Notes: generated from the sequence alone by a model not told the origin. A DNA stretch of 64,000 bases from an uncultured Bacilli bacterium (GCA_947629165.1 CANRCR010000001.1:86246-150245); one strand, 5' to 3'. Positions 58,135 to 63,417 are shown, counted from the first letter of the stretch. Translations and numbers: made by a program.

Positions 58135-59127
58135 TTGTATCATCGTAAAAAAATCTATAAAAAATCACACCATCGTTCAATCTCATTAAAAATAAAATTA
58201 CTCTTTCTTTGTACTATTTTAATAAGTTGTATCTACTTTCTCTATCAAGGTGTTTTATGGCTTACCCAAACATCTTTTCATCTATCTTTTTTAGAACAAG
58301 TTTTAGAAGAAAGTATCCCTTATCCAAAGGAAAATAATTATTCTTTCAAGTGGGTTTCTTCACTTACGCATTTTTTAACACGTGTCAATGTTCAAGAACC
58401 TTCTTCTATTTTAAGTCAAGGTTCCGTTTATTTTGCAGAAAATGTTCCTCAAGAAGAACTTGTTTTTGATTCCCCTTTGCCATCACAAGAAGTTGCTCAA
58501 GATGATCCTCTTCCGATTGTTTATCTTTACAATAGTCATCCGAACGAAGAGTATAGTGCATCCAATCTTGAACCTTACAATATTACTCCTAACGTGACCA
58601 TGATCAATTATATTTTAAAGGAAAATTTAGCTAAACAAGGTATTTATTCCATAGTTGAAGAACAGAGTGTTCCTGAAATATTACGACTCCATCAATGGAA
58701 TTATGCTTCGAGTTACAAGGCGACTCGTCTCTTAATGGAAGATGCAAAAGAAAAGAATCCTCAACTTGTCTATTTTATCGATCTTCATCGAGATTCGGTT
58801 GGAAAAAGTATTTCGACCGCGACGATTCAAGGCCTTACTTATGCAAAAGTGCTATTTTTAATCGGTTTGGAAAATGAAAACTATGCTCCCAATCTCGCTT
58901 TTACTGAAAAAATCAACCAACGATTAGAAAGTACTTATCCCGGAATCAGTCGGGGTATCTATAAAAAAGAAGGTCCTGGAGTGAATGGGGTTTATAATCA
59001 AGATTTTAGTCCGCGAACGATTTTGATCGAAGTGGGTGGACAAGCGAATACTATCGATGAAGTTTTCCGTACTACGGAAGCGATTAGTAATGTATTAGGG
59101 GCCATTATTAAGGAGGAATCGGTATGA
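58135..59127 (+). CDS. spoIIP: Stage II sporulation protein P (SpoIIP, engulfment amidase/peptidase)
   Basis: 330 aa, N-terminal TM, located directly after gpr (Bacillus synteny). SpoIIP-like size and composition. Confidence 0.65.
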   Translation: MYHRKKIYKKSHHRSISLKIKLLFLCTILISCIYFLYQGVLWLTQTSFHLSFLEQVLEESIPYPKENNYSFKWVSSLTHFLTRVNVQEPSSILSQGSVYFAENVPQEELVFDSPLPSQEVAQDDPLPIVYLYNSHPNEEYSASNLEPYNITPNVTMINYILKENLAKQGIYSIVEEQSVPEILRLHQWNYASSYKATRLLMEDAKEKNPQLVYFIDLHRDSVGKSISTATIQGLTYAKVLFLIGLENENYAPNLAFTEKINQRLESTYPGISRGIYKKEGPGVNGVYNQDFSPRTILIEVGGQANTIDEVFRTTEAISNVLGAIIKEESV

Positions 59128-59450
59128 ATTGGAATCAGTTTGCAGGAATTAGTTTTTTACTTTTGTTTTTAGTTTTTGTAGGTCTTTATTTTACGGCTTC
59201 TAGTGGCTATTACGAAACGGAGGAACGTAAGAAGATGACCCTTACGGAAGAACAGATTGCGCTTTTTGAAAAAGATGTAGCGGAAGGAAAACAGATCGAT
59301 ATCGAAGATTACTTATCACTTCATGAAAAACATTATGACAATGCGATTTCGTCTACCACTTTATCTTTATCGCATAAGATTGGAGAATATTTTGAACAGG
59401 GACTCAACGCCTTTTTTGAAGCGATGGCAAGTGCTATGAATTCACAATAG
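59124..59450 (+). CDS. yqxA: YqxA-like small membrane protein (DUF3679)
   Basis: 108 aa, N-terminal TM, overlaps the spoIIP stop. It is in the position of B. subtilis yqxA. Confidence 0.5.
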   Translation: MNWNQFAGISFLLLFLVFVGLYFTASSGYYETEERKKMTLTEEQIALFEKDVAEGKQIDIEDYLSLHEKHYDNAISSTTLSLSHKIGEYFEQGLNAFFEAMASAMNSQ

Positions 59451-59494
59451 CACTTGTTTTTTTTAATTTTCCGTTATACTATAATAATTGTAGG

Positions 59495-60100
59495 GTGGTG
59501 TTTGGAATGAAGGAATCGGTTTTACCGAAAATTGTTTTCATCGATCAGGACGAATGTCTCGTTTCCGGAGGATGGCTTTATTTATTGAACGAATTTTTAG
59601 GAACACATTATGTTATGAGTGATTTTTCATCTTATTTTATCGAAGAGGAAGCCATTCAAGATCCGATGCTTCGAAAAGAGTTTTATCAATATCTTTTAAA
59701 TAAAAATATATATCGTTATGTCGAATATTTACCGGGTGCTTTAGCGGCCATGGAAAAGTTATGCCGAAGTTCTTTGTATCGGCCGTATATTCTAACAAGT
59801 TACAGTATTCCTCAAGTGTATGAATCGTGTGGTATTTTAGCTGCCCAAAAGCATGATTTCTTTGTTCGAACAATGCCTTTTTTACCACGTGGTCGGCTTT
59901 TATTGACGAGCGGGGATAAGATGATTTTTCGAGGCGATATTCGAATCGACGATCTCGTTAAAAATTTAGAAAATGCCGATCAAAAAATATTGATGACTTC
60001 ATTTCATAACGAAAAGGTGCCTATTCAAACACTAGAAGAACAGGGAATTATTCGAGTGAAAGATTGGTATGAAGTTGAAAAAGTATTAAAATTAAAGTAG
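59495..60100 (+). CDS. HAD-superfamily 5'(3')-deoxyribonucleotidase-like protein (putative)
   Basis: 201 aa. N-terminal KIVFIDQDECLVSG resembles a DxDx(T/V/C) HAD motif I of the NT5C-type. Confidence 0.35.
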   Translation: MVFGMKESVLPKIVFIDQDECLVSGGWLYLLNEFLGTHYVMSDFSSYFIEEEAIQDPMLRKEFYQYLLNKNIYRYVEYLPGALAAMEKLCRSSLYRPYILTSYSIPQVYESCGILAAQKHDFFVRTMPFLPRGRLLLTSGDKMIFRGDIRIDDLVKNLENADQKILMTSFHNEKVPIQTLEEQGIIRVKDWYEVEKVLKLK

Positions 60101-60113
60101 GGAGTGAATTTAA

Positions 60114-60752
60114 ATGAAAGAAAAAGAATATAATACTTCGGTTATCATAACGCATTTTGATGTCGATTGGATGCGCATTAAATCTGCCTGTATGACAACG
60201 ATTAGTAAACAGGCTGGAACTAAAGAACCATCGGGATTATGGAAAAAGAAACTTTTAATCTGTCGCCATTCTCCTATCCGAAGAGGGGAAGTGAGTTGGA
60301 AATGGCCACAAATACCTTACGCTATTTCGACACATTTTGCACGGCATCACGAAGGATGCGAAAAGTTTATTGGAACGGAACGTACGGATCGTACGAATGT
60401 CGATCGTGAAACAAGAAGTCAAATGAATTATGTTCCAATGGAAATGGATGCCAATTTACAAGCGTTAATGAGTATTTCAGAACGGCGACTCTGTACGAAT
60501 GCCGACCCGCTTACTCGCAAATATTGGAGTTCACTTGTGGATGCACTTCAAGCCTATGATCCTTATGTCGCTTGGAGTAACGTTCCTCAATGTGTTGTTC
60601 GAGGGGGATGTTGTGAACCTTTCAGTCCTTGTCTTTTCTATGACAACTTAATGAAAGATGCCACCGAAGAAGAAAAAACATCACTTATTAAACGTTACGA
60701 TTTTTATAATCGAAAAACACGGGGATTAGTTCTTCCAACCGATACGAAATAA
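60114..60752 (+). CDS. Cys/His/Arg-rich hypothetical protein with elevated GC
   Basis: 212 aa with RBS tagggagtg. Composition is visibly GC-richer (about 40+%) than the flanks. No family recognised with confidence. Confidence 0.5.
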   Translation: MKEKEYNTSVIITHFDVDWMRIKSACMTTISKQAGTKEPSGLWKKKLLICRHSPIRRGEVSWKWPQIPYAISTHFARHHEGCEKFIGTERTDRTNVDRETRSQMNYVPMEMDANLQALMSISERRLCTNADPLTRKYWSSLVDALQAYDPYVAWSNVPQCVVRGGCCEPFSPCLFYDNLMKDATEEEKTSLIKRYDFYNRKTRGLVLPTDTK

Positions 60753-60843
60753 ATCCTTTGAAAAGGCTTTTTTCTTTACTTTTAAAACTAAAGAAATTAT
60801 AATAAAAAGTACTTTATTTTATCGATTAAGGAGCAATTTTTCT

Positions 60844-61692
60844 ATGAATAATTATGAACTTTCTATACTTTCCTATAAAGATGTGCATGGCGATGAAAAT
60901 ACGGATTCCATTATTAAAAATCATAGAAAAGCGGAAATTACGGATTTTGCGCTTCTTTTAGGTGGGGAAAGTACCGAGACAGGAACTTGGTGGTATTGGA
61001 TTAATGGAGTCAATACTCCTTACAGTGCTGTCGATTCTACTGGGCGTTTCTGTAATACCCGTCTTTCTCGGCGTAGTGGCGGAATACGTCCTTGTTTAAA
61101 AGTTTCTAACTTGAGTCGGATTCCTTACGAAATAATCGAAAATAGATTTGTAGAAGAAGTGATTTTCGGCGAATATCCGCAGTTTTCTGCTCGTACTTTG
61201 TCTCCTATATTAGAAAATGAGTATCAAAATGGTTTGCTTTCGGAAAGTGGTAAATATTACTCGAGTGATTCTCAAGAATGGACAGAGGAAGAGGGACCTT
61301 TTAAAGAACGCCGATTCACCGAATATATTTATCATAATCGGAAATTTATTCGTGTCATCGGGGATGAGAATGGCATAAATAATCATTTAAGTGATGGGGA
61401 AACTGTATATGTTGGGACCCCTTATTGGTTGGAAGTAACCCCTGTTCATTGGTATTTAGATGAAGCAAACCAGCAACTTATTTCACGTTATATTTTAGTT
61501 TCTGGTGTTCGTTATAGTAATCGTTCGAGTAAAATTATTACTGAGAGTGAAATTTATCATTTTTTACAAGATTATATGTTAGGTAATATTTATAATTCTT
61601 CTGATACTTCAATTTTGGGCCATAACAAGGATTTACGTAGCTTTGTCTATCGAAAAAAGATGTCCAAAAAAGCCACGTCAGGGGATGAGTAA
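60844..61692 (+). CDS. DUF6273-like family paralog 3
   Basis: N-terminus YELSILSYKDV...ITDFALLLGG...TWWYWING...RRSGGIRPCLKV. C-terminus FGEYPQF...YWLEVTPVHWYLD...LISRYILVSGVRY. Confidence 0.6.
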   Translation: MNNYELSILSYKDVHGDENTDSIIKNHRKAEITDFALLLGGESTETGTWWYWINGVNTPYSAVDSTGRFCNTRLSRRSGGIRPCLKVSNLSRIPYEIIENRFVEEVIFGEYPQFSARTLSPILENEYQNGLLSESGKYYSSDSQEWTEEEGPFKERRFTEYIYHNRKFIRVIGDENGINNHLSDGETVYVGTPYWLEVTPVHWYLDEANQQLISRYILVSGVRYSNRSSKIITESEIYHFLQDYMLGNIYNSSDTSILGHNKDLRSFVYRKKMSKKATSGDE

Positions 61693-62490
61693 ATGAATAC
61701 TTTCAAATTGTCTTTACCTACGTATCAAGATTTACATGAAGGAGTTTATTATCCGCTCGATGTTTGTGCAAGAGCTACAGATTATGCTTTTCTAACTGGA
61801 TGTGGCGGTTCCTTTGATCATTACGGTTGGTACTGGCTCAAAGCAGATAATAGTTCCGTTAATTCGGTTTCTACGACAGGTGGGATTTCTTCAGAAAATA
61901 AAGGACGTCGTTGTGGGGGAATACGACCTTCTATTTATGTTGCATCGTTACTTCCTTCTTCTAAGAAAATTATATCTTTCGGTGAATATCCTCAATTTTA
62001 CGATTATAGCGATAATGAGGAAATCGAATCTGCCTTTCAACGCAATCAACTTAGTCCTACTGGAAAGTTCTATTCGCTCGATAGTTGTCATTGGAATGAT
62101 GTCGATTCTCCTTTTCAACTTCGAAGATTTCCTGAATATAAATATAATAACAAAAAATATATCCGCTTGGTCGGGGATTTTAATAGCGATGGCGCTATTC
62201 TTAATAATGGAGAACGAGTCGTCGAAAATAATCCGTATTGGATCAAGGTAGAACCGATTCTTTGGATTCCTGATTATGACCACCATCTACTTCTATCAAA
62301 ATATGTTCTTTTATCGGGAATTCGTTATCATAGCGACATCTTTTATGATTCTTTTGATAATACTGAAATGAATAACTATCTTAGTAAATATATGACGCAA
62401 GAAATTAGCCCAGATGCATATCAGTCGACAGTTATTGATCATCATCCTAATTTACAACAATTTATTTACCGTAAACTTCCTAGAAAATAA
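61693..62490 (+). CDS. DUF6273-like family paralog 4
   Basis: FKLSLPTYQDL...ATDYAFLTGCGG...YGWYWLKAD...RRCGGIRPSIYV; FGEYPQF...YWIKVEPILWIPD...LLSKYVLLSGIRY. Start is 1 nt after the paralog 3 stop. Confidence 0.6.
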   Translation: MNTFKLSLPTYQDLHEGVYYPLDVCARATDYAFLTGCGGSFDHYGWYWLKADNSSVNSVSTTGGISSENKGRRCGGIRPSIYVASLLPSSKKIISFGEYPQFYDYSDNEEIESAFQRNQLSPTGKFYSLDSCHWNDVDSPFQLRRFPEYKYNNKKYIRLVGDFNSDGAILNNGERVVENNPYWIKVEPILWIPDYDHHLLLSKYVLLSGIRYHSDIFYDSFDNTEMNNYLSKYMTQEISPDAYQSTVIDHHPNLQQFIYRKLPRK

Positions 62491-62536
62491 TTTACTTTAA
62501 TCGATACCAGCGTTATAATAGGTATACTTTCTCGTT

Positions 62537-63340
62537 TTGTGGGGTGAATCTATGGAAAAATATAAACTCACTTTAATGAATAAAGATGATTTTCAATTTC
62601 TTTCGGGAAACTATGCTATTATGATCGATAGTGAAGCACGTGCGACCGATTTACATATTCTTTCAGGGGGTGGAGCCACCTCTCGCTTTGTTGCTTGGTA
62701 TTGGATTACGAGGTGCAATAACAATTCGAATAATTGTGTCAATTCGGATGAACATATTTCTGTTGAACGTGAAACCCGTCGTTGTGGAGGCATTCGTCCG
62801 GTTATTGAAGTGGAAGATTTAAATGATATTTCTTATATCCCTCAAGATAATGGGAAAGTTCTTTTTGGGGAGTACCCACAATTTTATGTTCCAGATCTTA
62901 GTCCCGAGTTAGAAAGAGTTTATCAAAACGGAATGCTTTCTACTACGGAAAGACATTATTCGCTCGATGGTACCTTTTGGCAATATGAGTCTCCTGATTT
63001 TAAACTTCGCACTTTTCGTGAATACACTTATAAGGATCGTCATTTTATTCGCTTTGTGGGGGACGAGAACGGTTGCCATGAAAATTTATGGAACTTGGAT
63101 AAAATAGAAATGAATAAAGCTTATTGGATTGAGGTAAAACCGGTTACTTGGTATTTAGATGAAAATAGACAACGACTTATTTCCAAATATGTTCTTCTTT
63201 CGGGCATTCGTTATGTCGATTTAGAATCCTATTTAAAATTATATATGACTCCGGAAATTGCTTCACGCCGTTCCAATTCATTTATTTTAGATTCGAATCA
63301 AGATTTACGTAGTTTGGTATATCGTAAAATTAAAAAATAG
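62537..63340 (+). CDS. DUF6273-like family paralog 5
   Basis: YKLTLMNKDDF...ATDLHILSGGG...VAWYWITRCN...RRCGGIRPVIEV; FGEYPQF...YWIEVKPVTWYLD...LISKYVLLSGIRY. Confidence 0.6.
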   Translation: MWGESMEKYKLTLMNKDDFQFLSGNYAIMIDSEARATDLHILSGGGATSRFVAWYWITRCNNNSNNCVNSDEHISVERETRRCGGIRPVIEVEDLNDISYIPQDNGKVLFGEYPQFYVPDLSPELERVYQNGMLSTTERHYSLDGTFWQYESPDFKLRTFREYTYKDRHFIRFVGDENGCHENLWNLDKIEMNKAYWIEVKPVTWYLDENRQRLISKYVLLSGIRYVDLESYLKLYMTPEIASRRSNSFILDSNQDLRSLVYRKIKK

Positions 63341-63417
63341 AAAAAAAGGGAAGGAAACTTTACCTTTTCTTTTGGTTTAATTTTTAGTATAATAAGTTTA
63401 GTTTAGAGGTGGATTCC

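Follow-up and report, generated by a model that had tools for sequence, protein, structure and literature searches.

What protein is encoded at positions 60114..60752 (+) of a 64,000-nucleotide stretch of DNA from an uncultured Bacilli bacterium (GCA_947629165.1 CANRCR010000001.1:86246-150245; the whole stretch is called the window below)? In a preliminary description of this locus the gene appeared as an open reading frame (ORF) for a 212-amino-acid, Cys/His/Arg-rich protein of anomalous GC content that could not be placed, and a faint resemblance to the flavin-dependent thymidylate synthase ThyX was considered and then set aside. The ORF itself is exactly as it was given there, with an ATG start. 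The protein can now be placed by its homology to ThyX, and the discarded resemblance turned out to be the correct lead, as judged from the fold, from profile-profile comparison and from weak Pfam and NCBIfam matches in its relatives. Our preferred reading, to which we give a probability of about 0.6, is that the gene encodes a compact and divergent ThyX, predicted to act as the thymidylate synthase that converts deoxyuridine monophosphate (dUMP) to deoxythymidine monophosphate (dTMP) in one clade of anaerobic Bacilli of the gut and in large gut phages. It is built on what we observed: homology and fold, conserved residues, the gene context and signs of purifying selection.

The AlphaFold2 model of the ThyX-like protein, for which 34 homologues were used as input, had a mean predicted local distance difference test score (pLDDT) of 83.7 and a predicted template modelling score (pTM) of 0.83. 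When this model was used as a Foldseek query against the PDB, all 50 of the top 50 matches were ThyX, with template modelling (TM) scores of 0.43-0.50; the H53D mutant structure 4KAR is among the PDB matches, and the viral matches in BFVD carry the name thymidylate synthase. Thus, the fold search that the preliminary description had proposed as a check led to ThyX, and the homology to a known family that it had named as speaking against its own view is essentially what was found.

We also compared sequence profiles. An alignment of 53 family members was aligned by hhalign with nine canonical ThyX sequences (T. maritima TM0449, in a version identical to PDB 1KQ4/1O26, and eight phage ThyX), which gave a probability of 97.4% and E = 3.8e-11 over 170 columns. 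The comparison of a close-family profile with a single ThyX yielded a probability of 0.6%, with the correct segment aligned; since this was too weak, the family had to be represented more broadly and ThyX by an alignment as well. Sub-threshold matches to PF02511 (Thy1) were present in 27 of 34 close relatives, and distant family members exceed the Pfam gathering score for Thy1 (e.g., P0158, 38.3 bits vs 24.8). The NCBIfam model TIGR02170 (thyX) was matched by 29 of 48 diverse members, with a best E of 3.8e-9. The profile-profile score together with these matches in relatives makes membership in the ThyX superfamily secure at the level of sequence, even though the identity of the protein to canonical ThyX is only 10-15%. 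A match of the close-family profile to VEGF in the PDB (E ~0.8) was rejected as spurious.

The family is large. Its close homologues number 769, with identities of 56-99%; not one has a precomputed Pfam domain, and wherever the source gives a name, they are called hypothetical. An exhaustive profile search extended the family to 967 clusters at 50% identity with E <= 1e-3, including 619 with E <= 1e-10. Among sequence records, a few from phages already name distant family members ThyX; full-text searches of the literature returned no account of a Cys4 or Fe-S ThyX, nor of this ThyX-like clade. We conclude that the gene represents a large and unstudied branch of the ThyX superfamily with a distinctive structure, and not a compositionally foreign protein. 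One natural fusion, P0239, joins an N-terminal guanylate-kinase-like P-loop kinase to the ThyX-like domain. It is one of four longer proteins that contain this domain (P0146, P0165, P0185 and P0239); two of the four have a C-terminal HNH_3 endonuclease segment, and may be homing-endonuclease fusions or read-throughs, and one carries GH108 lysozyme and PG_binding_3 domains.

We mapped the residues of ThyX onto the protein by a joint MAFFT alignment, which agrees with hhalign. In what follows, T. maritima (Tm) residues are matched to those of the window protein, and conservation refers to the 53 diverse family members. The counterparts of Tm H53, T55, R78, H79, S88, R90, R147, N163 and R174 are 81-100% conserved. 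Tm H53 corresponds to H52 (100%), T55-P56 to S53-P54 (S53, 98%), R78-H79 to R77-H78 (R77, 94%), S88 to T88 (T or S in all 53), R90 to R90 (100%), R147 to R98 (60405..60407 (+); 83%) and R174 to R125 (100%); S30 and N163 are retained as T29 and N114. At three further positions the residue differs: Q75 is altered to H74, R80 is replaced by H79, which is variable within the family, and N169 by S120, where the family consensus is N. The four Tm dUMP arginines R78, R90, R147 and R174 therefore have counterparts in R77, R90, R98 and R125, a correspondence that comes from the alignment and not from a ligand structure. In ThyX, R147 is a dUMP phosphate ligand supplied by the neighbouring subunit and R174 is the catalytic Arg, while Tm His53 stacks on folate and flavin.

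These residues fall into three segments. The motif H52-S-P-I-R56 (60267..60281 (+)), defined by alignment and conservation, is the counterpart of ThyX H53-x-T55-P-F-E58. On the same evidence, a degenerate ThyX motif, RHHEGCEKFIGTERTDR (60342..60392 (+)), contains R77, H78, G81, T88, R90, D92 and R93, and reads R77-H78-H79-x8-T88-x-R90-T. Both the x8 spacing and the Gly at +4 are also found in canonical phage ThyX (RHRSGWSYNEESGRY and KHQTGFSWNEVSRRY), and the first and third positions of the motif vary in some canonical phage ThyX as well (KHQ, KHM). Short-segment hhalign was split between two placements of T88-x-R90, and the joint MAFFT alignment together with the x8-spaced canonical ThyX settled it. 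D92 is an invariant specific to this family. The third segment is the helix N114...R125-L-C127 (60453..60494 (+)), matched by hhalign to ThyX N163...R174, in which both R125 and C127 are 100% conserved.

Several observations weigh against this reading. The window protein itself had no match in Pfam (E up to 10), in NCBIfam (E up to 1) or among PDB sequences. The strict RHRx7S motif is not present in it, as the preliminary description had rightly stated, and the degenerate RHH-x8-T-x-R stands in its place. Tm E58 is replaced by R56, a charge reversal that is conserved in the family (98% Arg), R165 corresponds to the variable and non-conserved Q116, and H178, not conserved either, to N129. Glu58 is an FAD-site residue of ThyX, and the Tm FAD-binding set consists of S30, T55, E58, R78-I81, N163, R165, N169, R174 and H178; of this set, T29, S53, R77, H78, N114, N/S120 and R125 are retained, and R56, Q116 and N129 are altered. 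In addition, the alignment indicates that the helical subdomain of ThyX (~50 residues, Tm ~92-143), which contributes to the tetramer and to the active site, is absent from the ThyX-like protein. With E58 changed to Arg, R165 and H178 not kept and the subdomain gone, flavin binding and the canonical mechanism are not assured.

The Cys residues give the family its most distinctive feature. All of the motifs quoted in the preliminary description (ICRHSPIRRG, HFARHHEGCEKF, CTNADP and VVRGGCCEPFSPC) are present in the protein. Four Cys are nearly invariant across the 53 members, which span identities of ~30-78%: C127 (100%), C160 (98%), C166 (100%) and C173 (100%). C127 lies two residues past R125, the R174 equivalent, and the others belong to a C-terminal segment, CVVRGGCCEPFSPC (60591..60632 (+)), with C160, C166, C167 and C173, which is conserved, is modelled at pLDDT 89-96 and shows weak Fer4_8 matches in relatives. 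This pattern indicates a putative Cys4 metal site, formed by C127, C160, C166 and C173 beside the active-site helix. The clustered metal ligands proposed earlier are in this sense borne out by Cys at 98-100% down to ~30% identity, but not by His, which is not enriched. To our knowledge, such a site occurs in no described ThyX.

Family-wide, the Cys spacing is C-x32-C-x5-C-x6-C, without CxxC pairs, and in the window protein the C-terminal part reads C160-x5-C166-C167-x5-C173. A spacing of this kind looks closer to [4Fe-4S] sites, such as those of Fe-S repair enzymes and RumA, than to a zinc ribbon. By this analogy the metal is probably a [4Fe-4S] cluster, with structural Zn as the alternative. 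The close subfamily has the motif CxxCxxC-x6-C, and weak Fer4_8 matches were obtained for 10 of 34 close relatives, namely those with CxxCxxC (best E = 0.0011). Neither a CxxCxxCxxxCP motif nor a Fer4 match was found in the window protein, and an identity as a ferredoxin domain was rejected, given that the fold is that of ThyX. At 60591-60614 the window protein has CVVRGGCC and close relatives have CVRCGGCV, so that the non-conserved Cys 163 is gone and a new Cys is present at 167, with the four family-wide Cys intact.

In phages, the gene has recurrent neighbours. We examined the neighbours of the ThyX-like gene at 44 IMG/VR loci, mostly on contigs of 60-180 kb. In large gut phages it sits in a same-strand module of the type NrdD-TK-[ThyX-like]-NrdG-dUTPase, where TK is thymidine kinase. 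NrdD and dUTPase were each neighbours at 31/44 loci, NrdG at 27/44, Pol III alpha at 25/44 and TK at 23/44; TK lies within 100 bp (<=100 bp) of the ThyX-like gene at 18 of the 38 loci whose ThyX-like ORF belongs to the main cluster of the neighbour analysis. No canonical ThyA or ThyX was found within +/-10 kb at the 44 loci, and no glycosyl-, amino- or other transferases recur among the top neighbour clusters. Some phages have DUF1599 and PAPS-reductase-like genes close by. A PHROG search with the window protein gave nothing useful.

Similar neighbours are seen in a cultured phage with a complete genome, Thomasclavelia phage TR-TP1. Its family member, gp64, is the only gene of thymidylate synthase type in the genome, is deposited as 'FAD-dependent thymidylate synthase' from a structure match, and is accompanied by NrdD/G, a dUTPase-like gene, a nucleotide kinase and an NT5C-like gene (NT5C denotes a 5'(3')-deoxyribonucleotidase). 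Pairing with NT5C in another phage, L007, was rejected, as the 201-amino-acid upstream gene there is not NT5C. Two genes of TR-TP1 are split: the gene for the large subunit of the anaerobic ribonucleotide reductase (RNR) is cut into two coding sequences by an HNH endonuclease gene (gp86-gp88; L088:17758-20881), and the DNA polymerase gene is likewise split by gp95.

On Bacilli chromosomes, the ThyX-like gene was found at differing sites in other metagenome-assembled genomes (MAGs), and its neighbours repeatedly belong to thymidine/thymidylate metabolism. The thymidylate kinase gene tmk lies directly downstream of it in L031, the thymidine kinase gene tdk directly upstream in L033 and two genes upstream in L024, and the pyrimidine-nucleoside phosphorylase gene pdp upstream in L021. 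In a more distant Bacilli MAG (L034:154-3002) the ThyX-like gene (57% identity) stands upstream of gpr-spoIIP-yqxA in divergent orientation. Apart from this gene, we noticed that L018:4218-7073 encodes a leucyl-tRNA synthetase with a NUDIX domain (residues 387-504) embedded beside the editing domain, and that the L020 enzyme is without it. Some MAG contigs with a ThyX-like gene are binned as Methanobrevibacter, Methanosphaera or Muribaculaceae (L026, L014, L028 and L031; also P0081). L026 shares its gene order with the phage-like contigs L029 and L032, and L014, L028 and L031 carry bacterial genes of the housekeeping or sporulation type (rlmH-type SPOUT methyltransferase, SpoIVB peptidase, ruvB and tmk). 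These contigs appear to come from phages or Bacilli and to have been binned wrongly.

Within the window the genes run in the order gpr (57001), spoIIP (58135), yqxA-like (59124), NT5C (59495), ThyX-like (60114), three paralogs (60844-63340) and lepA (~63415). In B. subtilis, gpr-spoIIP-yqxA-lepA is contiguous, with yqxA adjoining lepA; here, five genes (NT5C, the ThyX-like gene and the three paralogs) are inserted between the yqxA-like gene and lepA, at 59124-63415. The NT5C-type gene (59495..60100 (+); alternative ATG at 59507) was identified by Pfam PF06941 (E = 2.4e-16). It is separated from the ThyX-like gene by a 13-nt gap. The ribosome-binding site GGGAG (60100..60104 (+)) was read from the sequence 9 nt 5' of the ATG, and its first G is also the final base of the NT5C stop codon (60098-60100). 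Since the stop codon of one gene meets the ribosome-binding site of the other, a single transcript probably serves for the translation of both.

The unit so predicted appears to end downstream of the ThyX-like gene. A 4-bp hairpin, CCTT-tgaa-AAGG, followed by a T-run (60755..60773 (+)), may be a weak terminator, although it was read from the sequence, did not reach the cut-off used in the terminator scan and is given with low confidence. A promoter-like site, TTTACT-17-TATAAT (60775..60803 (+); a consensus match only), lies 5' of the paralog array and would mark the boundary of the NT5C/ThyX-like unit. The three tandem paralogs, all on the plus strand, follow at 60844-61692 (282 amino acids), 61693-62490 (265) and 62537-63340 (267). 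None of them matched Pfam at E <= 1, and DUF6273, to which they had been likened, was not detected. Three related uncultured Bacilli MAGs from the rabbit gut (L013, L015 and L016) have the same arrangement. The NT5C/ThyX-like pair is also present in L015 and L016, and L013 has neither NT5C nor the paralog array. Two paralog copies are found at the syntenic locus in L015, at least four in L016 and none was detected in L013; among the loci compared, paralogs occur only at the two closest syntenic ones, L015 and L016. A link of the ThyX-like gene to the array was rejected, because many loci, and phages too, have a family member but no paralogs, and a separate promoter-like site lies between. On the same grounds the earlier proposal of a regulator or partner of the adjacent paralogs finds no support. 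The gene does stand at the head of the supposed island, but the island is not one unit: the gene pairs with the upstream NT5C, and the paralogs have a promoter-like site of their own.

As the gene had been singled out for its composition, we compared it with the other 62 window ORFs of at least 120 amino acids. Cys makes up 3.8% of the protein vs 1.1% in the background (rank 2), Arg 7.5% vs 4.1% (rank 1) and Trp 2.8% vs 0.7% (rank 1). His, at 2.4% vs 2.0%, ranks 21, so there is no His enrichment; the protein is thus Cys- and Arg-rich as described, but not His-rich. The GC content of 0.401 is indeed the highest of the 63 ORFs (0.345 +/- 0.022 in the others; z = 2.6). However, the GC content predicted from its amino acids and the codon usage of the window is 0.397, and observed minus expected GC is +0.004, vs -0.001 +/- 0.012 in the others. 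GC at third codon positions (GC3) is 0.297 vs 0.265 +/- 0.033 (z = 1.0), and the surplus is located at codon position 2 (0.432). A normal GC3, a surplus at codon position 2 and an expected GC of 0.397 leave no foreign-DNA signature in this ORF. High GC is a by-product of an Arg/Cys/Trp/Gly-rich protein, and the codon usage is native; the uniform GC that the preliminary description had said would speak against its view is essentially what the amino-acid correction reveals.

The coding sequence is supported by the ORF call, homologues, fold and the ratio of nonsynonymous to synonymous substitution rates (dN/dS). Against the syntenic orthologues in L015 and L016, dN/dS of the ThyX-like gene is ~0.13-0.15, with dS saturated, which places it between gpr (0.08) and spoIIP (0.2-0.3). 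The ORF is real, intact and under purifying selection.

How might such an enzyme work? The substrate, the oligomeric state, the use of flavin and folate, and which metal is bound and to what end are inferred. dUMP would be held through R77, T88, R90, R98 and R125 and methylated at C5 as in ThyX, with H52 stacking on folate and flavin as His53 does. The role of the Cys4 centre could be to steady the shortened core or, if it is a [4Fe-4S] cluster, to pass electrons to the flavin. The neighbouring NT5C may dephosphorylate surplus dUMP or dTMP and so trim the pool. In a strictly anoxic habitat, and alongside co-encoded NrdD/NrdG that are themselves sensitive to oxygen, a cluster labile to oxygen is plausible. 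A stronger version of this scheme is a mechanistically distinct thymidylate synthase: a minimal ThyX core with a [4Fe-4S] cluster two residues from the catalytic Arg, in which the cluster would either pass electrons from ferredoxin or flavodoxin to the flavin, in place of NAD(P)H, or take over part of the redox chemistry, as a route to dTMP specific to anaerobes and phages. We put this forward tentatively, as a possibility with perhaps one chance in a few.

The changes at ThyX cofactor-site residues (E58 to Arg, R165 to Gln, H178 lost) and the extra Cys4 site, which suggests a changed redox chemistry, would also suit an enzyme of ThyX fold that acts on a different substrate or by a different chemistry. 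It could be a C5-methylase of uridine monophosphate (UMP) or deoxycytidine monophosphate (dCMP) like PolB, a hydroxymethylase or another pyrimidine modifier that yields a non-canonical nucleotide for phage DNA modification, with bacteria as secondary acquirers; the abundance of the family in large phages, some of which have it near DUF1599 and PAPS-reductase-like genes, would agree with this. We consider it unlikely, as the chromosomal copies in Bacilli adjoin the housekeeping genes tdk, tmk, pdp and NT5C, and the phage modules are the standard set for deoxynucleoside triphosphate supply (NrdD/G, dUTPase, TK), with the thymidylate synthase slot vacant and no recurrent transferases. Moreover, the arginines that contact the nucleotide phosphate have all been kept, as has the counterpart of the catalytic Arg. 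An inactive ThyX derivative that binds dUMP or dTMP, as a sensor or as a regulator of the adjacent kinase or nucleotidase, and in which Zn(Cys)4 is structural, would explain why the helical subdomain and some FAD-site residues are gone and why TK or NT5C genes are so close, and would recall the earlier idea of a regulator. Yet the near-invariant residues are precisely the catalytic and substrate-activating ones of ThyX (R125 = R174, R90, H52 = H53), domain searches detected no DNA-binding domain, and the family fills the thymidylate synthase position in phage modules that have no other thymidylate synthase; this makes an inactive binder improbable.

Least credible of all, and essentially excluded, is a horizontally acquired, ferredoxin-like redox partner of the adjacent family of three paralogs. 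The top GC of the window, the location between yqxA and lepA with the three paralogs and the weak Fer4_8 matches in 10/34 relatives could be cited for it. The GC is accounted for by amino-acid composition, with native GC3 and codon usage, the fold is that of ThyX and not of ferredoxin, and at many loci, as in phages, family members stand without the paralogs, which own a separate promoter-like site.

Thymidylate synthesis is essential and only two enzyme classes, ThyA and ThyX, are known for it; ThyX is also pursued as an antimicrobial target. If active, the family would define a minimal catalytic core of ThyX and possibly an Fe-S-linked route of flavin reduction in anaerobes. A compact, divergent ThyX would also supply the thymidylate synthase that is missing from the annotation of MAGs of gut Bacilli and of many large gut phages; public names for these proteins, where given, are mostly 'hypothetical'.

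Among known systems, the closest is ThyX/Thy1 itself (PF02511, TIGR02170; structures 1O26, 2AF6 from M. tuberculosis, 3AH5 from H. pylori and 2CFA from PBCV-1). The likeness consists in profile homology, in the counterparts of key residues and in the genomic niche beside dUTPase, RNR, TK and Tmk genes. The ThyX-like protein differs by RHH-x8-T in place of RHR-x7-S, by Arg in place of Glu58 and by R165 and H178, which are not kept, as well as by the deletion of a ~50-residue subdomain and the addition of a C-terminal segment and the Cys4 site. PolB, the UMP/dUMP C5-methylase of polyoxin synthesis (4P5A), is a full-length protein of the ThyX type encoded in an antibiotic biosynthesis cluster, whereas the present family is truncated, Cys-bearing and found in DNA-precursor gene contexts. 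RumA/RlmD is a uracil-C5 methyltransferase with a four-Cys [4Fe-4S] cluster of non-obvious role and with C-x5-C-type spacing. It is comparable to the ThyX-like protein in these features, but has an unrelated fold, depends on S-adenosylmethionine and acts on RNA, and is thus an analogy only. Finally, the best Foldseek match in the PDB was T. thermophilus Thy1 with an extra C-terminal domain (6J61, according to its entry title). Unlike the ThyX-like protein, it has kept the whole ThyX core with its canonical motif (223 bits to Tm ThyX), and it offers a precedent for a module appended to a ThyX core.
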